Of a stretch of 64,000 bases of DNA, positions 15,949 through 42,417 are shown one piece after another. A program made the translations under genes and the position numbers. The notes under the pieces are model-generated. The model was not told the origin of the DNA. It ran no database searches and saw nothing but the letters and a program-made list of their open reading frames with translations. The stretch spans positions 21,829 through 85,828 of the forward strand of contig DAIMCS010000004.1 in assembly GCA_036726225.1 (NCBI GenBank), read 5' to 3'. This DNA comes from Patescibacteria group bacterium (GTDB lineage Bacteria > Patescibacteriota > Doudnabacteria > UBA920). Position 1 is the first letter of the stretch; each line of letters starts with the position of its first letter.

Positions 15949-16272
15949 TCAATGGTATGAGATTACGTATAAGACTCGGCTTCGACCCAGATCATTCACC
16001 AGCGTGAGATATCGGTGGCCTTTGCGAAACGCCTTTTCATCGACTCCAATGTGCGTCACCGGTTCCGCTTTCCGTCGCTTCAGCCCACGTTTGACCGCGC
16101 GATCCATGATGCCGTGAATTTCATCCCAACTCAGATGAAGCTGTTCAGCAACCGCCTTCTGACTGGCCACCTTCAACCAATCGATCGCCAACCGTTCAAA
16201 CAGTGCGGTGAATCGGCTACCCGGCTCCGCCCAGGAGAGCTTCACCACTTTAACCCCGTGCTCGACCGGCAA
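15949..16272 (-). pseudogene. ISL3-family transposase fragment (HTH region and start of the DDE domain)
   Basis: HIGVDEKAFRKGHRYLTLVNDL matches the start of DDE_Tnp_ISL3; TTG-initiated with a TGA two codons upstream; lacks the catalytic core and C-terminus. Confidence 0.65.
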
Positions 16273-16390
16273 ACTTCAGCGAGCTGAGGATCAGTTTTCT
16301 GTGGGGAGGGAGTGGAAGGCTCTGTTTTGCCGGAAGTTTCGTAGATTGGTTTCAGGAAAGATTGAGGGCTCACCAGTGTGGAGGAAAACA

Positions 16391-16813
16391 CTACGAATTT
16401 CGTCGCTTTATCCCATATTTCTCATACCAACCATATGTCTTGAGCCACTGATACAACGCATCTCGACTAATTCCAAGCAACTGCGACGCCTCTCCAACCT
16501 CTTTGGTTACTTCAAAAACACGGGTAATTAGCCATTGTTTTAAGAGTTTGTCATGCTCTCTAAATTCTAACTTGCCCAACCGAATGTCCTCACCTGTAGG
16601 AGCCTGTATTAAAAAGTCACGACTGCAGCTCTCGACTTGTTCACGAATCTTCATCGCGTGTCTATGGAGCCCATCATGCTCGACGACCCCCTTGAGTTGC
16701 TCCCAAATCTGAAGCTGATTCTTAGCGCTGAGGATGTCCTGAGTCTCCACGTAGGTTCGCGCCAAGTATAAGGAGAGTACGGCCCTCAATTTTGCATCCG
16801 GCATTCGAGGCAT
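16391..16813 (-). CDS. Hypothetical protein with a C-terminal Fis-type helix-turn-helix
   Basis: ASQLLGISRDALYQWLKTYG resembles the HTH_8/Fis DNA-binding motif; no AAA+ motif in the flanking ORFs. Confidence 0.35.
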   Translation of the reverse strand: MPRMPDAKLRAVLSLYLARTYVETQDILSAKNQLQIWEQLKGVVEHDGLHRHAMKIREQVESCSRDFLIQAPTGEDIRLGKLEFREHDKLLKQWLITRVFEVTKEVGEASQLLGISRDALYQWLKTYGWYEKYGIKRRNS

Positions 16814-17917
16814 AAACGAATCTTGCGGTGAAGGACCCTGCTTTCACTCCGCTGTGATGTACTTGACTCGCGATGAAGGTTGCAAAAAACAGCCTCACCA
16901 TCTCGCACGCACAATCGTGCCCTTTCAGTTTGCCCGAGATAGTCATATACCTGCGACAGGAGACAGCGCAATTCTACTTGCGGTATTAGAGCCCCGTCCC
17001 AATGGCCGTCAGCGACAGAACGAGGTATAACCCACCCAAAAAGCGAATTGGCAAGGTGCGTCGTTTCTTTTACAGCCAACCGACCGTGATGCCAGGCATT
17101 CGCCAACTTCTCGTAGGACGACTTGTGATCCTCCAGCCGGTCAGTGGTTTCTTCAGGCCATTTGACGAATCGATTTTCTTCTTTCACATGGAATCCGTTG
17201 TAGGAGCCACCGACATTTCACATCAGTTTAATCAATCACTATTGAAAACCCTTGATTTCACGATGTCAAGAAAACCTAGAGTTTGTCATTTTTGTCGACA
17301 AATCCCTTGAAGCTTTTGAGATGGCATTTGCGATAGTGTTAAGTGTTTCGGGATTGGTTGACCAGAGGCTTCGAGTCCAGCGTTCCTTGAACTTCCTCTG
17401 TCTTTGTAAAGTCCCCCGACGTTTATGGTGCTTTGGCTCGTGTTCTGGCCAGGGCAACATGTTATGAGCTTTCTGGCAGCCTGAAGCGGATGCGGTGTCG
17501 GAAAGCTTAACGTATTTCGCAATTCTTAAGAACAGGCTTTGTCCTTCGCTGGTAAGGAATTCTGTTTGTAATGGATTCGAGACAAAGACTTGACTAGCTC
17601 GTGATTTGCTATTTGCTGAATTGGTCCTTCTGTTGCTGGCAGCGTCGCGCCTTGTAGTGTGTCTGAAACTTGACAGACGTGGACTTAATGCTGTACATTG
17701 AGCGCAAGGTATTGGGATTAATTCATTTGCAAGATACTGCCTATAGTGTTCTTGTCTCTGAGGTAAGAGATTTGGTTCTTGTCGCAGTTCGGGATCTTCG
17801 GCGCTCTCAGGTCTTGCTTCGCCGGCCATGCTCAAACAGGCCACCGTTCCCCAACCCTTCCTTTAGCCCGTACCATTTCCGTTTGACGTACCCAGAAGCA
17901 GAAGGAGGAATCTTGCA

Positions 17918-18427
17918 ATGTTAGGGCGAACTGTGATCTTTACGGCCGCGGGTTTGTTGCTGTTAGGCGGTTTGACAACCACTGCCGGCTTATTAGCCAC
18001 AGCGGTTGCTGTTGGCCAGCAGCGACCCGCATGGCCGCCACCATTACTGCCAGGTTATTCGTATGCACAACCGAGACATCCTGGACATCGGTGGGCGATG
18101 GTTAAATATCGTACACCCGTTAAGTTTCAGGACGCAGCTATAGAGATCTTACTCGACTCGTCTGTTTCCACGCCTGCCCTCCGCAAGGTGGAAATTCGGG
18201 ATGTAGGCAACTCCGTGGTGGCGACGAAAGAGTGGAGCGCTACTACCGTCGAGGGAACTGTTCAAAGTCAGGCTTTCTATCAGTATCGGATCAGGGATAT
18301 CTTCTCAAGTGTTCCGCCACCGAGCGCAGCTGAAACTCGAACTCGAACTTATGTAGTTCGCATATCGGCTTTCGATCGCCGCGAGGTCATAGAAACGATG
18401 GAGTTTCGGCTGGAACTCGTCCCATAG
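17918..18427 (+). CDS. Hypothetical secreted protein (island cargo)
   Basis: Hydrophobic N-terminal signal/TM region; GC-rich codon usage; no motif recognised. Confidence 0.35.
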   Translation: MLGRTVIFTAAGLLLLGGLTTTAGLLATAVAVGQQRPAWPPPLLPGYSYAQPRHPGHRWAMVKYRTPVKFQDAAIEILLDSSVSTPALRKVEIRDVGNSVVATKEWSATTVEGTVQSQAFYQYRIRDIFSSVPPPSAAETRTRTYVVRISAFDRREVIETMEFRLELVP

Positions 18428-18540
18428 GTCGGTTAAAGAACGTTCTTTGGTAGAACGTTCTTTTTTTGGTTCTCAGTTTCCCAAGAGACCACCCTCCTTC
18501 AGCAGCAACAAGCAAGTACAGGTTTAAGAAAATATGGAGC

Positions 18541-19275
18541 ATGGAGCGGAAATTGCGTCTGCTGATTCTAAATGTAATTGTTTTACTTAGCATACTGCTT
18601 GCGAGTTTTTCTCACCGCACGGCAGAAACGCAAACACCGCAAGCTCAGAACAGCCCAGCTTCTACGCGGCCCTATTGCTATTCAATTTTCGGTAGAAGAC
18701 CGATTCCAATGGTTACGTACCAACTAATATTGTCTTCCAAGGTTGCTATGCCTAATGCCTGGACTACTGCAGTATCAAATGCAGCGACCGAATGGAATAT
18801 GGTTGGGACGGCGTTTACGCTAACAGGGGGGAATACGATTATTCTCGCGACGGACGATACTGTGATTCGCGTACCCGGCGGCAACGTTTTGATCCAAAGG
18901 GGAAATGCAATACAAGCCACTATCGCCGGTACAACTATTACGATTTCCGTCGCGCTCACAGATGAAGAATTACGTTCTACCCAAATTGGTGCGAGCGTTG
19001 CAACAACTTCAACCGAATTCAACGAACTTACTCGTGCTGTTTTCAGCAGAGAGATAGTTGTGAACGGACGGGCAAACTGGATACTAACCGGCGCTATACC
19101 CACAAACGGGTTCGACCTTCAAGGCGTGGTTGCGCATGAGTTTGGACATATCGCCGGTTTGGCAAATGTGTCATGTCCTGGGCCCGTTATGCAGGAAACC
19201 ATAGAACCTGGGCAACCACGCAGACTCACGGATGACGATAGACAAGCTCTCAGGCAAATTTATCCATCTAAGTGA
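18541..19275 (+). CDS. Secreted zinc metalloprotease-like protein (HEXXH, metzincin/snapalysin-like)
   Basis: Signal peptide after MERKLRLLILNVIVLLSILLASF; motif VVAHEFGHIAGLAN. The track ORF starts at 18466, but the internal Met at 18541 fits the signal peptide better. Confidence 0.55.
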   Translation: MERKLRLLILNVIVLLSILLASFSHRTAETQTPQAQNSPASTRPYCYSIFGRRPIPMVTYQLILSSKVAMPNAWTTAVSNAATEWNMVGTAFTLTGGNTIILATDDTVIRVPGGNVLIQRGNAIQATIAGTTITISVALTDEELRSTQIGASVATTSTEFNELTRAVFSREIVVNGRANWILTGAIPTNGFDLQGVVAHEFGHIAGLANVSCPGPVMQETIEPGQPRRLTDDDRQALRQIYPSK

Positions 19276-19370
19276 GAGAGACAATTCCCTAATCGAGAAA
19301 ACCCTTCTTGATTCATCGAAGCGTGTTCAATCGTCGCCCCGAAAAAAGGCTCTTCCGGGTTTTTAGTGGG

Positions 19371-19763
19371 TTACGGAGCCAGATCCAGCCCGCCACAGTG
19401 GAAGTAAATCGCATTGATGAAGTTCCTCTGATTGCGGAATCCGCGTGCCGTGTACTTCACCCACTGGATCTTGGCGTTCAAGGATTCGCTGGCCGCATTG
19501 GTGATCCGATGTTTGATAAACGTCAGAATATTTTCGAGACGACGTTTCAGCATGCGACCGGCTTCGATCATTGGCTTCAAGCGGCAGCGTGAAGCCCAGC
19601 TATACCAGCGGTCGAAGAATGACCGTGCCGCTCCGGTATAAACATACGTGAACAGGGTCGTGTAGTACTTGCGGAAGCAGTGGATGGCTGTTGGCCACCG
19701 GTTTGGGCTGCCATTCAGCAGAACGAAGCGTTCGGTAAATCCCTTATCGAAGATGTCGCTCAT
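19371..19763 (-). pseudogene. ISL3-family transposase C-terminal fragment
   Basis: WYSWASRCRLKPM, ITNAASESLNAKIQWVKYTARGFRNQRNFINAIYFHCGGL match the DDE_Tnp_ISL3 C-terminal region. It lies upstream on the strand of the N-terminal fragment, so the two pieces are not contiguous. Confidence 0.65.
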
Positions 19764-19908
19764 GGCAACTTTTTCGGAAGACAGGCTAATTCGTTGCCGT
19801 CGACTGAGGTTGAACTTGCGGATCTATACATTTGGGTGGTCCGGCGATATCCATATAGCGTCGAGCTCTGTCAGCAGTAGCCGGTCCCGTTCCTGCAAGA
19901 CTAATCCA

Positions 19909-21315
19909 TCATTGCCAGTCATCCAGCGCCTCCTCGGTGGACAGCGCCAAGGCGGCCCTGACGTTGATATCGTGCTCGATCTCTGAGCGGGGCATGGCCC
20001 ATCGTCCACGGCATCGCGAAAGCAAATCTCCAGAGGAGGGCAATGCCTTGATCTCCGGCACTTGAATTTGCGACCAGCGATAGGAGCCGCTTTTGACAAT
20101 CATTTGACGGTGAGGCAGGTGGCGGAGCAGTTCAGATAGCTGCTTTCCGCCACCCAGGGCTGATGCCATCTTGCTGGCATCATCGCTGGAAAGCTGAAAC
20201 AGAACGTGCGTGCCGACAGCAAGGATTGCGGCCTTCATCTGCGGTGGATATTGCTCCAAGAATTGGTTGGCCGAGACGACTGAAATGCCGAACTTCCTGG
20301 CTTCGGACAACAGTGTGTCGATGCCGGCGTCGAAGGTCACGAGATTCTGGATTTCGTCGCAATAGAGCGTAAAAACCCTCCTCGATTTTCTTCGAAAAAT
20401 CGCATGCTTGAGCTTGGCAAGAAATAGGCTGCCCAAGGTCGACGCCTGTTCGCCCAAACGGCCTTTGTCCAGGTTGAGAATGATCCAGTAGCCGTTATCC
20501 ATCGCATCGAGTAGAGAAAAACTCGAGTGCTCCTGACCCAAGATGTGGCGAAAGTGCGGGTCCGCGGTAAACGCCGTCGTCTTATTCAACACCGCCTCCC
20601 TAAATGCAGCCTGCATCCCCTCGCTGATTCGGTCATATCGCGTCTCGAAATATCGGCGGACTTCAGGATTGCGAACATGCTCCAGGCATGCTGTCCGAAA
20701 GGCGGAATGAGTCAGCAGCGGTGCGATCTCAAGGAACGTGAGACGGCTTTCCGACAAGACATACAGTGCGTTCCTGAGCAGCTCTTCTGTCCTGGCCCCC
20801 AACGCGTCCAGATGCCAGCGTTGTTTCAGTATCTGTGCGAACTCCGAAATCTGGACGAAATTGGAATCGGCTGCTTTGGGCTGTTCGAGGACATTGAGAC
20901 CGACGGAGTAGCGGGGATCACCCGGTTCGATGACGATCAGCTTTTGAGTTAGGTCCTCATTACGCGATCGTTCCCTTTGCGCGATGGCCGCGAGCAGGAA
21001 GCTTTGAGCGTCGCCATGGAGATCGAAGAAGACAAAACCGCGATTGGCCTCGATGTCCTGCAAAACAAAATGTTTGAGCAGAGTCGACTTGCCCGTGCCC
21101 GTCTTGCCCAACACAGCGATGTGCTCCGGCCGACGAGCGTGCGGTAACAACGACATTGAAGGATGGAGCGGCAGTATGCTGGCCCGTCCCAGTTTGGATC
21201 GTCTCCGCGACGATGCGACAAAAGGAAGTTTTGATGCCGTACTGCTCAATGATGTAGACCGCCTAGCCCGCGATGTTGCGCATTTGGGAATAATCAAGCG
21301 GGGTTTCGAGAGCAA
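19909..21315 (-). CDS. TraD/TraG/VirD4-like conjugative coupling-type P-loop ATPase (soluble form lacking an N-terminal TM domain)
   Basis: Walker A LGKTGTGKST; Walker B-like FVFFDLHGDA; C-terminal LYCDEIQNL...ARKFGISVVSANQ typical of the T4SS DNA-transfer (TraD/HerA-like) ATPase domain. Confidence 0.55.
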   Translation of the reverse strand: MLSKPRLIIPKCATSRARRSTSLSSTASKLPFVASSRRRSKLGRASILPLHPSMSLLPHARRPEHIAVLGKTGTGKSTLLKHFVLQDIEANRGFVFFDLHGDAQSFLLAAIAQRERSRNEDLTQKLIVIEPGDPRYSVGLNVLEQPKAADSNFVQISEFAQILKQRWHLDALGARTEELLRNALYVLSESRLTFLEIAPLLTHSAFRTACLEHVRNPEVRRYFETRYDRISEGMQAAFREAVLNKTTAFTADPHFRHILGQEHSSFSLLDAMDNGYWIILNLDKGRLGEQASTLGSLFLAKLKHAIFRRKSRRVFTLYCDEIQNLVTFDAGIDTLLSEARKFGISVVSANQFLEQYPPQMKAAILAVGTHVLFQLSSDDASKMASALGGGKQLSELLRHLPHRQMIVKSGSYRWSQIQVPEIKALPSSGDLLSRCRGRWAMPRSEIEHDINVRAALALSTEEALDDWQ

Positions 21316-22374
21316 ACACGTTCAGTTGGTCTTTCGCAAATTGCCTTCAGACAACAGTCCCACGTACAACCTGATGGTCAATATCCTCGGCAGTTTCGCT
21401 GAGTTCGAGCGGGAACAAATTCTTGATCGAATGCGCCGAGGCAAACGCCACAAGGTGGAGGTCCGAAAACAATATGTCGGCTGCATCGCTCCTTACGGCT
21501 ATCGATACCAAGTCGGTAGTGCAACGGTCGGCCGCGAAGCTCAGATCGAGATCATCTCCAAGGAAGCCGAAGCCGTAAAGAAGATTTACACTTGGGCATC
21601 GGCGGGCATTTCAATGAAAAGAATTGCACGCAACCTCGACGAATTGGGTGTGCCAACACGAACTGGCAGGCCCGCCTGGGCTGCCAGCATCGTTCATCGG
21701 ATCCTCCATAACGAAACGTATGCTGGTGTCTGGTCCTACTGCAAACTGGAGGCATGCGAACCGATCCGTCCAAAAATCCGCACTACATATAGACGCATTT
21801 CGCGCTCGAGTCGTCGGCGGATGCGCTGGAATCGATTATGTGGACGTCCCTACGGGAGGCTCTTTTGAACCCGAAACACTTGAAGCAGCGAATTCTCAGG
21901 GCGCGAAACCGGATTGCAAAGGAAGGCGCTGCGGCCACTAAGACCCAAACTTCCGTTGAAAAGCTCGACGAAGACACTCGTCTGATCCAGCGCTATCGCT
22001 CCGGTGTCATCACAGCGCAAGAATTAACAAATGGTCTCGAGGCTATAAAAGCTCGTCGTCAGGAGCATCGAGCCGATCATTCCAATAAGCAGAGTCGAAA
22101 TCACCCATGGCCCGGGATTACAAAGATGTGTCGTCGCTTGGCAAAACGACTGGAAGATCCCGCGCCAGCATCGCGCCAACAAATATTCCGGGACTTAATC
22201 GACGAAGCTACGGTCTTTGTCGATGAGGTGAGAATCCGCGGCAAGATTACCGCTGAGTCTCTGAGCGGTAGTACGGTCGTTAACCAAATGGCAGGAACAC
22301 GCGAAAATCTGATGGCGATTCAATCTGCGAATGAATTGTCTTGTGAGATTGCATCATCTCAATCAAGGTTTTAG
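21176..22374 (+). pseudogene. Large serine recombinase, 5'-truncated and frameshifted
   Basis: Frame A (to 21868) has the resolvase-domain C-terminal half (LDRLRDD, DRLARDVAHLGIIKRGFESKHVQLVF, ILGSFAEFEREQILDRMRRGKR) and the recombinase domain. Frame B (21838-22374) has the coiled-coil tail. The catalytic-Ser N-terminus is missing and overlaps the TraD-like gene. Confidence 0.6.
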
Positions 22375-32221: not shown

Positions 32222-32872
32222 CTAAACCTTCTTCCACTCCACGAGCTTGCCCGCTGCAATTTCTATTTTGTCCGCCCTTCTAAGATGGCGGATTTGTTTT
32301 TTATTTAAAATTTTAAAATGCTTAATCTTGTCCAGCTTGTGCGGGATAGCAAAAAGGTTTTTGGCCGATGTCCGCCAGTTAAGTTTGTCAAAATATGCAA
32401 GGTCAAAAAGATGGGAATATTCCCTCAAGGTTTTTTTTCCGTTGTCTAAAAAATATTCGTGGAAAAAAGAAAGCGCCAATTCCCTTACAGTTTTATAAAT
32501 TGGCTCCCGATAGCGCAAAACTCCGTGGTTAGTCTTGGAAATTGCGCCGTAGCAGCCAAATTGCTTAAAAACGGCCACCACATGATCGTCATCATAAGGC
32601 TTAGCCGAACGAAGGTCTAAAACATACGGCCGCGCCCCGTTAAATTCCAAAACCGCGGCCGCAAACATTGCCCCTTCCATACAGTGCGCTTTTTGGGTTT
32701 TTATAACAAAACGGGGCGACATACACGTCTCCCCGCCCTTTTCAAAGTTGATTTTTATGGAATTCAAATAATCCTGAATTTTTTTGGGCGAATTCAGTTT
32801 CTTAAACAGTAAAAGTTCATTCTTGGAATAGGCAAATTTGTTGCTTGTCACTTGTAACCTGTTACTTGTCAC
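32222..32872 (-). CDS. Hypothetical protein with a possible Cys/His/Asp papain-like fold
   Basis: Only CMEGAMFAAAVLE ... DDDHVVAVF ... NHGVL spacing noted; weak. Confidence 0.3.
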   Translation of the reverse strand: MTSNRLQVTSNKFAYSKNELLLFKKLNSPKKIQDYLNSIKINFEKGGETCMSPRFVIKTQKAHCMEGAMFAAAVLEFNGARPYVLDLRSAKPYDDDHVVAVFKQFGCYGAISKTNHGVLRYREPIYKTVRELALSFFHEYFLDNGKKTLREYSHLFDLAYFDKLNWRTSAKNLFAIPHKLDKIKHFKILNKKQIRHLRRADKIEIAAGKLVEWKKV

Positions 32873-38046: not shown

Positions 38047-39063
38047 TCAGTCTTTAAAACCTGTACGGTAAATGTTGAGCAGTGTAATAAACACAGCCAT
38101 CATAATTGGCCCAAGCAAAAACCCTAAAACTCCAAAAAGTTGGATGCCGCCCAGCACTGCCAGCAAAACCACCAAAGGATGTAAGTTAGCTTTGCTGCCA
38201 ATAACTCTGGGGCTAATAAAGTTGTCTATTAAACCAACAGCTACCGCCCCCCAAATAACCAATCCCACGGCTGCGCCCGTGTGGCCGGTAAGCAGCAAAT
38301 ACAAAACCGCCGGAACAATGGACAAAGATGTGCCAAAGGTAGGCACTAAGGCAGCCAGCACGGTGACCGCTCCCCAAATAAACGGATGGGGTACGCCAAA
38401 AATTAAAAAACCGACTGTGGCAACGACACCCTGTGTAAGCGCAATTAAGAACGAACCCTTTACCACTCCGGAAATTGCTTTTTCCAATTCATCTATTAAT
38501 TTTATTCCGTGGGCCCGGGAGAGCGGGAAAATTGCGCCTGCTAATTCTTTAATTTTGTCGCCGTCGCGCAAAAAATAATACAGGCTAAAAAATACCAAAA
38601 AACACCCGAGCAAAAAGTTGGCAACGTTAGACAGGATGGTAGTTACGCTGCGAACTGTGGCTCCTGCTAAAGTGGAAACCCTTTCAGACAAGCCTATTAA
38701 AAAACTTCTTCCCAAATCCTGCAGAGCCTCCGGCAAAGCTTTCACAAGCCCGTTTTCGCCTAAATTCAATCCGCCATTGGCAAAGCTGTTGTAGAGGTTG
38801 ACAATTTCACCATACAAAGCGTAGCCAATTAAAAACAAAGGCACTAAGACAATTATTAAAACCAATAACACGGTAAGCAGCCCGGCAGAAGTTTCGGATT
38901 TTGTCTTTCTTACCAAACGCTCATACCAAGGCTTAAAAAGCACTGCCAAAATTCCGGCCAAGGCGAGTAATTCTAAAAATGGCCAAAACAAAAAAAGGGC
39001 TAAAATAGCGGCAGCGCCTAAAAGAATAAAAAAACCTATATTTTGAGTCCGCTCATTAAACAT
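38047..39063 (-). CDS. AI-2E family transporter (PerM/YhhT, UPF0118)
   Basis: About eight TM helices; overall UPF0118-like layout; 338 aa. Confidence 0.7.
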   Translation of the reverse strand: MFNERTQNIGFFILLGAAAILALFLFWPFLELLALAGILAVLFKPWYERLVRKTKSETSAGLLTVLLVLIIVLVPLFLIGYALYGEIVNLYNSFANGGLNLGENGLVKALPEALQDLGRSFLIGLSERVSTLAGATVRSVTTILSNVANFLLGCFLVFFSLYYFLRDGDKIKELAGAIFPLSRAHGIKLIDELEKAISGVVKGSFLIALTQGVVATVGFLIFGVPHPFIWGAVTVLAALVPTFGTSLSIVPAVLYLLLTGHTGAAVGLVIWGAVAVGLIDNFISPRVIGSKANLHPLVVLLAVLGGIQLFGVLGFLLGPIMMAVFITLLNIYRTGFKD

Positions 39064-39186
39064 ACACTATTATTATAACAGATTTATCCCAGTAGACAAA
39101 AACCCCTGTTTATGCTATATTTTATGTATCTTTCCCGAAAAGAAAACGCGGGATTTTTTTATGAAAAGCGAGCAGCCCCATACTTT

Positions 39187-39245
39187 CCTCTCCCCTTGCG
39201 GGAGAGGATGTTCTGACAAAGTCAGAACAGGTGAGGGGAAATAGG
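39187..39245 (+). promoter_or_regulatory. Structured GC-rich element in the typA 5' leader
   Basis: 8-bp perfect hairpin cctctccc-cttgc-gggagagg, then ttctgac-aaag-tcagaa and GGTGAGGGGAAA; a related copy lies inside typA at 40481-40534. Confidence 0.3.
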
Positions 39246-39254
39246 CACTAAATT

Positions 39255-41165
39255 ATGAAACGAGACAACATTAGAAACATTGCAATAATCGCGCACGTCG
39301 ACCATGGGAAAACGACTCTTGTCGACGCCATGCTTAAGCAAACCCAAACCGTAAAAGACAATCCTGACACCAAGGATTTAATTATGGACAGCATGGACCT
39401 GGAGCGCGAGCGCGGCATTACCATTCGGGCGAAAAACGCTTCGCTTATTTATAATGGCACGAAAATAAATATTGTAGATACCCCCGGACACGCTGACTTT
39501 GGCGGTGAAGTGGAACGTACTTTAAGAATGGCCGACGGAGTTTTGCTGCTTGTAGATGCCAAAGAAGGCCCCATGCCGCAAACCAAATTCGTGCTTAAAA
39601 AAGCTTTGGAGCTTGGCCTTAAAGCCATTGTGGTAATAAACAAAGTAGACAAGCCCGATGCCCAGGTGGAAGCCAGCATCAACAAAACTTTTGACTTGTT
39701 TGTAAAATTAAATGCGAATGACCAACAGCTCGATTTCCCTATTATTTACGCGGCCGGCAAAAAGGGCTTGGCCGACACTGACTTAGAAAAATTAAAAGCT
39801 AAAATTACTTCGGAAAGCACGCCCGATGTTTCTCCTTTGTTTGAAGCCATTATAAAATATATTCCTGCGCCCGATGTTAAACCCGAGGACCCATTTGCTA
39901 TGTTGGTCTTAGCTTTGGTTTACGACAACTACAAAGGTAAAATGGGCATTGGCAAAATTGTTTCCGGCTCCATAAAAAAAGCCCAGAATATTGTCCGCAT
40001 TAAGCCGGACGAATCAAAAACATTAGGAAAAATTTCTTCCTTACAAATGTACGAAGGCCTTAAGCCTGCCGATGTAGAAGAAGCCGTAGCCGGCGACATT
40101 GTGGCTATTGGCGGCTTTGACGACATCTCCATTGGAGAAACTTTAACTGACCCTACAAATCCCATTCACTTAGAGCCCGTAGAAATTGAACCGCCCACAA
40201 TAAAAATGACTTTTGGCGTAAATACTTCTCCCTTTGCCGGACGAGAAGGTAAATTTGTCACCTCCAGAAATTTGAGAGATAGATTATACAAAGAACTTGA
40301 AATTAACGTGGCTTTGAAAGTTGAACCGAGTGAAGAAGGTGCGGAAAGCTTTTTAGTTAGCGGCCGCGGTGAACTTCACCTTGGAGTTTTAATTGAAACT
40401 ATGAGACGCGAAGGTTTTGAACTGCAAGTTTCCCAGCCACAGGTTATTTATCACTACAAAGCGCCGGATGGCACAATATTACCTTCTCCCCCCGCGGGAG
40501 AAGGTGGCCAAAGGCCGGATGAGGGGGAAAAGGGCTACACAAAAATGGAGCCTTACGAAGTAGTTACTATTGATGTACCCAGCGAATACCAAGGCGCTAT
40601 GATAGAAAATTTGGGCAAACGCGGCGCAGAAATGCTGCATATGGATTCTTCCAACAACACTGAACTCCACGCCGAATATCTCATACCCACTCGTGGTTTA
40701 ATTGGTCTTAAAAACCTGCTTTTAACACAGACCCGCGGCACAGTTATTTTAAATAATTTGTTCGACAGCTACAAACCCGTTCACGAAATAGATGCCCATG
40801 CTAATGAGCACGGCAGTTTAATTGCTTCTGAAACCGGAGTCTCCAATGCCTACGGACTTAACAATGCCCAAGAACGCGGCATTATGTTTATTGGCCCGGC
40901 CGTGGAAGTTTATGAAGGTATGGTTGTGGGACAAAATGCTTTGGATACCGACCTTGAGCTTAACGTTTGTAAAACTAAAAAACTTACCAACATTCGCTCC
41001 AGTGGAACCGACGAAGCCATTATCCTCACCCCTCCCCGTTTAGTTGAACTGGACTTTGCGCTCGAATACATTGGGCCGGACGAACTTGTTGAAGTAACTC
41101 CAAAATCTATTCGCATCCGCAAAAAATTATTAGACGCCAACGCCCGCAAACGCGCAGCACGGTAG
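39255..41165 (+). CDS. typA: Translational GTPase TypA/BipA
   Basis: G1 AHVDHGKTTL; G3 DTPGHADF; G4 NKVD; EF-G-like domains and the BipA C-terminal domain; carries an extra ~18-aa Pro/Gly-rich insert. Confidence 0.95.
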   Translation: MKRDNIRNIAIIAHVDHGKTTLVDAMLKQTQTVKDNPDTKDLIMDSMDLERERGITIRAKNASLIYNGTKINIVDTPGHADFGGEVERTLRMADGVLLLVDAKEGPMPQTKFVLKKALELGLKAIVVINKVDKPDAQVEASINKTFDLFVKLNANDQQLDFPIIYAAGKKGLADTDLEKLKAKITSESTPDVSPLFEAIIKYIPAPDVKPEDPFAMLVLALVYDNYKGKMGIGKIVSGSIKKAQNIVRIKPDESKTLGKISSLQMYEGLKPADVEEAVAGDIVAIGGFDDISIGETLTDPTNPIHLEPVEIEPPTIKMTFGVNTSPFAGREGKFVTSRNLRDRLYKELEINVALKVEPSEEGAESFLVSGRGELHLGVLIETMRREGFELQVSQPQVIYHYKAPDGTILPSPPAGEGGQRPDEGEKGYTKMEPYEVVTIDVPSEYQGAMIENLGKRGAEMLHMDSSNNTELHAEYLIPTRGLIGLKNLLLTQTRGTVILNNLFDSYKPVHEIDAHANEHGSLIASETGVSNAYGLNNAQERGIMFIGPAVEVYEGMVVGQNALDTDLELNVCKTKKLTNIRSSGTDEAIILTPPRLVELDFALEYIGPDELVEVTPKSIRIRKKLLDANARKRAAR

Positions 41166-41198
41166 ACTGTCATTGCGAGCGAAGCGAAGTAATCTATC

Positions 41199-41238: not shown

Positions 41239-42417
41239 CTATTTCTTTGCTCGATGAGCACGAAAACCATCATCGAAGATTTCGTAATAATCGGCATATA
41301 TATATTTTTGAGCATATTCCGTCTCGCCAAGAGGTTCTAGAATTCTTAACTTTTGCAAACGCTCAATCATATTGTAGGCACCCTGAGGAGAAAAACCAGT
41401 CCACTTCATAATTTCCGAAATACCTACTATGGGCTGACTGAAAAGCTTGCGGACAATTTCCAAAGTTGATTCTGCCGATTTTTTGCCAAGCTTTTGCATT
41501 TTAGCAAAATCGCGATCGCGCAATGCAGTAATCTGAGCACATGTTTCTATACCAGATTCGGCTATTTCCGCAATTCCCTCAAGAAAAAAATCGAGCCAGC
41601 CATAGACGTCAGAATCTTCATCATGATACGCCTGAAGTTTCTGATAATATACTTTTTGGTATTTTTTGAAGTAGCTTGAAAGATACAAAACTGGTAACTC
41701 TAACAACTTTGCGTGATGAATATACATGGCAATTAACATCCTTCCAGTACGTCCGTTACCATCGGTAAACGGGTGAATAGTCTCAAATTGTGCATGAATT
41801 AAACCTGCCTTTACTAATGAAGGGTAATCATCTTTAGTGTGAATAAATTTCTCTAAATCGCCCATGGCTTTATTCATGTCATGTGGCGCTGGGGGGACGA
41901 ACGAAGCATCGGCGGGAGTTTTTCCACCAATCCAATTCTGAGTACTACGAAACTCACCTGGATATGCATGTTGTGTAGAACGAGCACCCGTCATTAATTT
42001 TTCATGTAATTCACGAATAAAACGCAAAGAGATCGGGAATTCCTTTGTTCTGTCAACGCCGTAATTCGCAGCCTTTATATAATGTTCAATATCGTCCACG
42101 TCAGGATTTTTCCTGTCTTTCTCCTCTGTCACTGGCGCGGCAACGGCATCTTGCAATGTAGCCTTAGTACCTTCGATCTGACTTGAGTAAGTAGCATCTT
42201 TTACTACGAACATAGAAATAAAAAAATCCTTATCAGGCAATAGACGCATAATACCATCTAGTTTACCAACCAACCTAATAGCCTCTTCGTGCTTTTTATA
42301 AAGTTTTGGGCTAATATTGAAACCAGCTTTTGGCGGGAAATCCAAAGGCGTGAAGGTCTTATAACCTTCTTTTTGTTGTATATACTTGCCAATTTTCGGT
42401 TTGTTGATATCATTCAT
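41239..42417 (-). CDS. Fic-family protein (AMPylator-type) with an N-terminal inhibitory motif (class II-like)
   Basis: Fic motif HPFTDGNGRTGR; N-terminal SSQIEG matches the (S/T)xxxE(G/N) inhibitory helix; C-terminal wHTH-like region. Confidence 0.85.
   Translation of the reverse strand: MNDINKPKIGKYIQQKEGYKTFTPLDFPPKAGFNISPKLYKKHEEAIRLVGKLDGIMRLLPDKDFFISMFVVKDATYSSQIEGTKATLQDAVAAPVTEEKDRKNPDVDDIEHYIKAANYGVDRTKEFPISLRFIRELHEKLMTGARSTQHAYPGEFRSTQNWIGGKTPADASFVPPAPHDMNKAMGDLEKFIHTKDDYPSLVKAGLIHAQFETIHPFTDGNGRTGRMLIAMYIHHAKLLELPVLYLSSYFKKYQKVYYQKLQAYHDEDSDVYGWLDFFLEGIAEIAESGIETCAQITALRDRDFAKMQKLGKKSAESTLEIVRKLFSQPIVGISEIMKWTGFSPQGAYNMIERLQKLRILEPLGETEYAQKYIYADYYEIFDDGFRAHRAKK

Follow-up and report, generated by a model that had tools for sequence, protein, structure and literature searches.

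What is a GC-rich, hairpin-forming stretch of DNA doing inside the reading frame of a conserved translation GTPase? The question is raised by the typA (bipA) gene of a Patescibacteria group bacterium, of the Candidate Phyla Radiation (CPR), in a 64,000-nucleotide stretch of contig DAIMCS010000004.1 (assembly GCA_036726225.1) with a GC content of about 42%. Names such as 'Candidatus Doudnabacteria bacterium' are attached to close homologs of its TypA, and a Doudnabacteria-type origin is most likely. We refer to this whole stretch as the window. An original prediction, made from its letters, had pointed to a structured element in frame in typA and to a matching layout in the gene's own 5' leader, and both were borne out. 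Our answer is that the element is probably a dispersed DNA repeat of the BoxC/PIT/TMECO type, which is tolerated and translated in a linker loop of TypA. The gene, the insertion and the two copies of the repeat are laid out as follows.

39186-39237 (+): leader copy of the triplex-type repeat, in the typA 5' leader, ending 17 nt before the ATG
39186-39194 (+): pyrimidine arm of the leader copy, TCCTCTCCC
39195-39199 (+): loop 1 of the leader copy, CTTGC
39200-39208 (+): purine arm of the leader copy, GGGAGAGGA
39209-39228 (+): loop 2 of the leader copy, 20 nt
39210-39228 (+): 8-bp hairpin GTTCTGAC-AAA-GTCAGAAC in loop 2 of the leader copy
39229-39237 (+): mirror tail of the leader copy, AGGTGAGGG, 9/9 triads
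39255-41165 (+): typA/bipA, an intact open reading frame of 636 residues with every BipA domain present
40455-40526 (+): insertion of 72 nt or 24 codons (residues 401-424), relative to the nearest insert-less ortholog, encoding YKAPDGTILPSPPAGEGGQRPDEG
40482-40525 (+): coding copy of the triplex-type repeat, inside the typA frame in sense orientation
40482-40490 (+): pyrimidine arm of the coding copy, CCTTCTCCC
40491-40495 (+): loop 1 of the coding copy, CCCGC
40496-40504 (+): purine arm of the coding copy, GGGAGAAGG
40505-40516 (+): loop 2 of the coding copy, 12 nt
40506-40516 (+): small hairpin GGCC-AAA-GGCC in loop 2 of the coding copy
40517-40525 (+): mirror tail of the coding copy, GGATGAGGG, 9/9 triads

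Both copies consist of the same five parts, in which a 9-bp pyrimidine/purine hairpin (40482-40504 in the coding copy), a second small hairpin and a purine tail can be recognized. The original prediction had spoken of a G-rich tail. A tail is indeed present, and it can be described more closely as an exact mirror of the purine arm in both copies, with the triads limited to G.G, A.A and T.A; read as direct repeats, the tails score 7 and 8. Computed folds of the single-stranded DNA show, for both copies, a pair of neighbouring hairpins and an unpaired tail (z = -5.6 and -2.4). Chance is a poor source of such arrangements. The pattern CTCCCC-N3-6-GGGAG has 2 sites in the 64 kb (0.11 expected), as does GGGAGARG-N4-30-TGAGGGG (0.00 expected), and an 8-bp pyrimidine/purine hairpin accompanied within 45 nt by a perfect mirror tail has two occurrences in the window, both on the + strand, and none in 200 first-order shuffles. 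The search for other copies that had been suggested yielded none more in the 64-kb window, by pattern or by structural definition, and many in related loci.

Since the tail mirrors the purine arm, the element is a triplex motif of the BoxC/PIT/TMECO type. This family has the pattern 5'-CCCTCNCCC-N3-6-GGGNGAGGG-N3-GGGNGAGGG and 3610 occurrences in 262 proteobacterial genomes (Holder et al. 2015, PMC4666352), and the same paper describes how it forms, in vitro, an intrastrand triplex of the purine motif. In Escherichia coli K-12 its location is always intergenic; it was never found with mobility genes and has been linked to local deletions and rearrangements (PMC4666352). Like the published family, both window copies have arms of about 9 nt over a first loop of 3-6 nt. 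The leader copy is also non-coding; the coding copy at 40482-40525 departs from the intergenic rule by lying in the typA frame. The strict TMECO pattern is matched by the typA inserts of two related loci, L161 and L163 (L and P numbers are our handles for loci and proteins), and in Bosea. Over 37 nt, the core of the L161 insert has 92% identity with unannotated (intergenic) sites that are present in 4152 of the 5426 complete E. coli genomes.

The mirror rule holds well beyond the window. Our geometry test covered 33 Doudnabacteria-type sources, i.e. 32 loci and the window. A mirror third segment with at least n-1 allowed triads lies on one side in 32 of the 68 strand-specific pyrimidine/purine hairpin entries, compared with 3 of 68 in the wrong-side control; because each hairpin reads as pyrimidine/purine on both strands and so is entered twice, about 30 of the 34 distinct hairpins have such a segment. 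Summed over the elements there are 190 G.G, 43 A.A and 31 T.A triads and 14 others, which is 264 allowed against 14. Tails fit their own arms (0.95) better than the arms of other elements (0.80) among the 32 elements, which were preselected for a good tail, and of 76 A positions in the arms, 74 have an A or T opposite them in the tail. Where arms are asymmetric they are followed by a mirror and not by a direct repeat, e.g. GGGAGAGGA by AGGTGAGGG, GGGAGAAGG by GGATGAGGG and AAAGAGGGG by GGGGAGTTT, the last in the L005 element (CCCCTCTTT / AAAGAGGGG / GGGGAGTTT). The distinct arm/tail pairs number 24, and at least 24 pairs changing together are comparative evidence that the three-segment architecture, not the hairpin alone, is copied or selected. 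The gap at loop 2 is at least 12 nt in 18 of the 32 detected elements, some of these gaps being composite or nested, and a hairpin in this second loop was seen directly in both window copies and in L286. Hairpin-loop variants and the same subtypes are also found in Bosea, in a gut-metagenome contig and in a metagenome-assembled genome of the Rickettsiales.

Are the two window copies sisters, as had been proposed? The shared architecture stands, but recent duplication was rejected, as the arms, loop-2 hairpins and tails differ and each copy has closer relatives elsewhere. The leader copy falls into one group with the copies in the leaders of L003, L094 and L286. These have the window layout, with arms, loop-2 stems and tails that differ and covary; the stems are GTCCCGAC in L003, GTTCCGAT/ATCGGGAC in L094 and GCGCCGC in L286. 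The subtype of the coding copy (arm GGGAGAAGG, tail GGATGAGGG) is also found in Bosea and in L163, there both inside a gene and in a spacer. L161, the closest insert-bearing relative, hosts another subtype at this position of typA, preceded by a flank, HY.xPDG(S/T)I, that it has in common with the window, and this points to replacement or independent arrival in an older long-loop allele.

We now turn to the insertion itself, which was predicted to be about 18 residues long and to sit in a surface loop. Alignment with 120 close homologs (74-100% identical) sets its boundaries at residues 401-424, ambiguous by a few codons, and so corrects the length to 24 residues, of which only about 15 codons are repeat and 9 are flanking inserted codons. 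About 100 insert-less homologs, 611-613 residues long, read VIYH-EKDG-VKMEPYE at this site. The nearest ortholog, P0004 in L162, has no insert although it is 95% identical in protein and 84% in DNA, and the 72-nt insertion, aligned as 6 + 66 nt, is the sole indel between the two genes. Among 147 TypA loci from many phyla the loop is 8-10 residues long in 142, and only five, all Doudnabacteria-type, have loops of 37-47 residues. Because the closest ortholog and other lineages have no insert, this is not an ancestral loop, and the proposal of a small insertion element tolerated in TypA gains support. An intron or intein was rejected, as the insertion is too short, has no stop codon and keeps the frame.

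The predicted placement in a loop is also supported. TypA matches the Pfam families GTP_EFTU, GTP_EFTU_D2, EFG_III (weakly), EFG_C and BipA_C, and the insert falls between the EFG_III match (ending at 391) and the EFG_C match (starting at 430), in the linker loop between domains III and V. The protein also matches E. coli BipA structures (E = 5e-180), and in that alignment residues 401-428 stand in place of BipA residues 391-394. An AlphaFold prediction from 52 close homologs puts the insert between two predicted strands, with a predicted local distance difference test (pLDDT) score below 50 for residues 409-425. This is a poor model (mean pLDDT 60), from which surface exposure cannot be proved, and therefore our loop placement is based on the BipA alignment and the Pfam boundaries.

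The presence or absence of the insert in relatives, a comparison that had been recommended, shows a polymorphic and crowded site. Inserts of 20-47 residues are found at exactly the same position in 19 of 117 close homologs. They fall into several mutually unrelated classes with no peptide common across classes, although one class, RKYAELDAETRG..., is kept as a peptide in five proteins and the flanking residues HY..PDG(S/T) recur among insert-bearing TypAs. The reading frame is kept in every insert-bearing gene. In a neighbour-joining tree the insert-bearing TypAs are scattered among insert-less ones. For 17 of 18 the nearest insert-less protein is closer than the nearest bearer of the same class, with nearest-neighbour bootstraps of at least 174/200 for each of the 17 and 200/200 for 13 of them. 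A single spreading insert-bearing allele was rejected, since the flanking 45 residues on either side are no closer among bearers than elsewhere. At the DNA level, the typA inserts of relatives are GC-rich hairpin modules. Those of L161 and L163 read CCCTCTCCC-TCT-GGGAGAGGG-NNN-GGGTGAGGG, that of L008 is the same module plus an extra hairpin before the tail, and in those of L002, L083 and L164 a related module occurs once or twice, in some cases inverted.

A different 20-residue insert, RKYAELDAETRGKLTGHK..., occupies the same site with a conserved peptide in P0009, P0027, P0067, P0070 and P0109, five proteins that belong to separate clades. The proteins P0027 and P0047 are 99% identical and are nonetheless set apart by this insert, of 57 nt, and by 24 strongly diverged nucleotides; apart from these 24 nt, which adjoin the indel, their DNA divergence is even along the gene. 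The insert DNA at 4201-4257 of L285 contains three direct CGCGGA(A)C words.

The family is not confined to typA. We counted 2 copies in the 64-kb window and 30 in 495 kb of related loci, and in relatives the repeat turned up in spacers, leaders and further coding genes, again as an insertion element would. In L163 a stretch of 22 kb contains about nine copies, most of them in the spacers of called genes, and in L091 two near-identical units of about 68 nt lie directly 5' of the start codons of typA and of the next gene. Two further conserved proteins host copies in frame that are polymorphic between species. One, recognizable by AHCMEGA...DHVV...SKTNH, carries in one loop a sense copy in L163 and antisense copies in L007, L088 and L008. 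The site is empty in nine orthologs, including that of the window:

32231-32722 (-): AHCMEGA-type ortholog of the window, without insert

The other is a QQPCGFFPKRF protein, with different copies at one site in L163 and L161. The elements measure 33-52 nt and are read in different frames and both orientations, giving peptides such as SPLPLGEGQGEG, SPSGRGQGES and NPHPGPSPRGRGG. A separate 22-residue Arg/Gln/Gly-rich insert, RGRQDQAQGRDRRTGREHSRQG, is present in the AHCMEGA-type ortholog of L012 (5411-4857, - strand), at a second site that is unused in other species.

What is being conserved, the peptide or the DNA? Between L161, L163 and L008, the third position differs at 41-46% of those typA codons that specify identical residues. 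In the arms and tail of their repeats there are 0 third-position differences, and there is one in a loop-2 codon. The frozen synonymous sites imply that conservation acts on the nucleotides, or that the copies are homogenised, and not that it acts on the peptide.

How might the copies travel? The exact TMECO pattern, with 27 specified bases, is also carried by viral or proviral contigs of IMG/VR, in at least 120 stretches (L165-L244 among them), so phage-borne transfer is possible, although no phage or plasmid association was seen in E. coli (Holder et al., PMC4666352). No target-site duplication was found, the longest word shared by left and right flanks being 3.69 against 3.70 for mismatched flanks (32 elements). 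Repeats of 5 bp in the flanks, CACAA at typA and TTGAC in L163, were dropped as word sharing equals that of mismatched flanks.

In an orientation and location census of 35 Doudnabacteria-type sources (34 loci and the window), typA-associated copies are present in 11 and lacking in 24, and among the 15 typA copies 12 have the sense orientation. Of the 30 detected repeats, 23 have their purine-rich segments on typA's strand, whether they lie in the gene or outside it, and this may be a replication-strand bias. Leaders with no triplex-type repeat have a repeat of another kind: in L001, L006, L007, L008, L009, L010, L011, L084, L088, L096, L164 and L285 a short word of the species' own occurs 4-6 times in the 60-120 nt that precede the typA ATG. 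Examples are ATCCGGAT, TTCCGTAG, CGCTGATC, CCGTAAT and ACGAAA/TTTCG. In many cases the word runs forward in the first half of the leader and as its reverse complement in the other half, and to judge from this arrangement such leaders could fold into a long imperfect hairpin.

How might such a repeat behave? The pyrimidine arm would pair with the purine arm, at the least as a hairpin, and the third segment, composed of G, A and T as a mirror of the purine arm, could turn the single strand into an intrastrand triple helix of the purine motif. In the window copies the loop-2 hairpin would replace the canonical short second loop and keep the third segment beside the duplex. A triplex may also form in the cell. 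New copies would presumably arise by DNA-level copying or conversion that leaves no target duplication. In TypA the repeat would be translated into a flexible Pro/Gly/Glu-rich extension of the loop, as the intact frame and the low pLDDT of the weak model suggest, and would be neutral for the protein. It would persist since the linker loop tolerates extra residues, not through any need of TypA; we favour tolerance because related species have many different inserts in this very loop. Structure-prone DNA may also promote local indels and replacement, as reported for E. coli, and this would explain the hypervariability of the typA site.

Several points weigh against this reading. The strict TMECO pattern has no match in the window, where the second loops measure 12 and 20 nt instead of 3 and the arms are at least one base off. 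The triplex was seen in vitro but not stably in vivo (Holder et al., PMC4666352). We found no transposase, terminal inverted repeat or target duplication, nor is any known, and for this reason 'mobile' is a word taken from the distribution only. Translation of the insert we infer from the intact frame alone. The YKAPDGTIL part of the insert is not repeat and is common to other long-loop alleles; the loop therefore has a history older than the repeat copy. Lastly, 15 of the 30 detected copies fall in typA and its 200-nt leader, which form 14% of the sampled DNA. This enrichment, about 3.5-fold (binomial p about 4e-6), is overstated because orthologous copies are not independent, and it could reflect a typA-specific role rather than mere tolerance.

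Might such a role be regulatory? The leader and coding copies would then be a cis-acting device that tunes transcription or translation of typA, a cold- and stress-related GTPase, through RNA hairpins or through a DNA triplex or G-quadruplex on the non-template strand. The concentration at typA, the predominance of sense copies, the common layout and covarying arms, stems and tails of the leader copies in the window, L003, L094 and L286, and the RNA fold of the leader (z = -4.8) are all in keeping with this. Nevertheless we think it unlikely: more than two-thirds of the loci (24/35) do without a typA copy and have unrelated short repeats in their leaders, the leader and coding copies occur together only in the window, and the same family is found in unrelated genes and spacers. 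A mirror tail is meaningless for RNA pairing, purine-motif triplexes are reported not to form in RNA, and PIT elements have neither promoter nor terminator activity in E. coli. Furthermore, Rfam offers no match. A scan of the whole window gave nothing at gathering thresholds, and a permissive scan of 39000-40700 returned only the sub-threshold families whalefall-1 (15.5 bits vs 37), Chlorobi-1 (16.4 vs 50) and SCARNA3. A related idea, which we also hold to be improbable, is that the folded DNA structure is itself under selection; it is prompted by the covariation of arms and mirror tail at orthologous sites and across phyla, together with the concentration at typA. The structure might then serve as a governor of typA expression that is sensitive to strand separation, supercoiling or temperature, or as a built-in fragile site driving cassette-like replacement of a surface loop. 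The latter would account for the scatter, over the TypA tree, of unrelated insert classes that all use one codon. A G-quadruplex/hairpin switch in place of a triple helix was proposed for the same E. coli repeats, with circular-dichroism evidence for both forms (Kaplan et al. 2016), and canonical copies such as that of L161 (GGGAGAGGGGCAGGGTGAGGG) do have four G3 tracts. In the window copies, however, the tracts are mostly GG and the loops are long, the A/T variant of L005 keeps the mirror rule while being incapable of a quadruplex, and the matching of arm A by tail A or T is needless for one, so we give this switch little chance.

Two further explanations are less likely still. If the loop were a selected, lineage-specific feature of TypA, e.g. 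a contact with the ribosome or a partner, the palindrome would be a by-product of Pro, Gly and Glu codons. The universally kept frame, the conserved RKYAELDAETRG... peptide and the recurring flank HY..PDG(S/T) are what one would expect of such a loop. That said, we consider it very improbable, as the closest ortholog and about 100 close relatives have no insert, the insert classes share no peptide, the synonymous sites of arms and tail are invariant in a gene where 41-46% vary, residues 409-425 are modelled with a pLDDT below 50, and the same motif recurs in non-coding DNA and, reversed, in other proteins. A miniature transposon (MITE), moved by a cut-and-paste transposase making staggered cuts, would be multi-copy, short, palindromic and present or absent between species, as these repeats are. 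It should also have left target-site duplications, which the flank comparison does not show; apart from the internal hairpin no terminal inverted repeat is present, and the E. coli literature reports no transposase association, all of which makes a MITE a very remote prospect. Our preferred reading thus remains that of a tolerated BoxC/PIT/TMECO-type repeat.

How do these elements compare with known systems? BoxC/PIT/TMECO elements are known from E. coli, other Proteobacteria and Cyanobacteria (Hoyne & Maher 2000; Holder et al. 2015, PMC4666352). The likeness extends to a pyrimidine arm, a loop of 3-6 nt, a purine arm and a third segment mirroring it in purines and T, and to the shared core words CCCTCTCCC, GGGAGAGGG and GGGTGAGGG. 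Both appear to be multi-copy, in either orientation, sometimes as inverted pairs and often just upstream of genes, and both go with local indels or rearrangements and with no associated transposase. The differences are that the elements are strictly intergenic in E. coli, whereas here they lie in frame in typA and two other conserved genes; that loop 2 is 12-49 nt in about half of this clade's copies and forms a hairpin of its own in those of the window; and that the host is a CPR bacterium with a GC content of about 42%. The repetitive extragenic palindromes (REPs) and the mosaic elements built from them (BIMEs) are likewise short, GC-rich, multi-copy hairpins with no target duplication and no terminal inverted repeats. 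They are extragenic, species-specific in sequence and tied to a RAYT (Y1 HUH) transposase gene; in the present family the same sequence subtypes recur across phyla.

The GC clusters and double-hairpin elements of fungal mitochondria are small GC-rich hairpin modules in an AT-richer genome, strain-variable, sometimes in frame in genes, and some consist of two adjacent hairpins. They differ in being organellar, unrelated in sequence and free of a mirror third segment. The Rickettsia palindromic elements (RPEs), credited to Ogata et al. in 2000, are said to measure about 100-150 bp and to encode a conserved peptide specific to each family. Like the repeats described here, they are short palindromes in frame in unrelated conserved genes of a small-genome bacterium, polymorphic between species, and survive where the protein fold tolerates an added peptide. 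They do not have the pyrimidine/purine mirror architecture; our elements are only 33-52 nt long and have no family peptide; no sequence relation is expected, and we liken the two by behaviour, not by sequence. A summary of RPEs can be found in PMC10969869. Among the best-ranked matches of a literature search on repeat elements and insertions in coding genes of the CPR there was nothing relevant.

For 30 years BoxC/PIT/TMECO has been known as a strictly intergenic repeat with no known function or means of spread. The setting described here is new, as the motif stands in frame in a conserved translation GTPase and in two other Patescibacteria proteins, where ribosomes presumably read through it. 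The hairpin-loop-2 variant would escape the published searches, which were limited to loops of 1-6 nt (PMC4666352). Annotators should be warned that Pro/Gly/Glu-rich 'inserts' in the proteins of such genomes can be repeat DNA and not adaptive loops. The scattered, unrelated inserts at one typA codon also form a natural series for the study of non-B DNA and of local indels and replacement.

A few observations concern the surroundings of typA. Upstream of the leader copy, and outside the repeat, lie two features that we give for context.

39093-39121 (+): promoter-like site for typA, TAGACA-17-TATATT with a TG extension
39133-39160 (+): short GC hairpin TCCCG..CGGGA followed by seven T, at the 5' end of the leader

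The hairpin was read directly in the sequence, the terminator scan having passed it over because its loop is 11 nt. It is kept in relatives with covarying stems, e.g. TGCCC/GGGCA and TTCCCG/CGGGA (L004, L006, L008, L081, L162 and others), and from its position after the promoter-like site, with its T-run, it looks like a conserved attenuator or terminator.

Within typA, the codons for SPFAGREG hold a native pyrimidine/purine hairpin, CTTCTCCCTTTGCCGGACGAGAAG (window 40225-40248; L001 10971-10990). It has no mirror tail and is ordinary coding sequence; not every pyrimidine/purine hairpin is therefore a copy of the repeat. Directly 3' of the typA stop codon, at 41166-41195, lies tgtcattgcgagcgaagcgaagtaatct, which we take to be similar to a further short repeat that metagenomic assemblies commonly contain. 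The related word gcgaagcacattattt lies directly 5' of triplex-type repeats in L003 (9862-9875) and L163 (8709-8722). The gene downstream of typA (41239-42417, - strand) encodes a 392-residue protein with the motif HPFTDGNGRTGR, presumably a Fic-domain signature. Further away, positions 16001-22000 have a GC content of 0.49-0.54 compared with about 0.41 elsewhere, and no rRNA or other Rfam family was found in them. The GC skew of the + strand is negative throughout the window.

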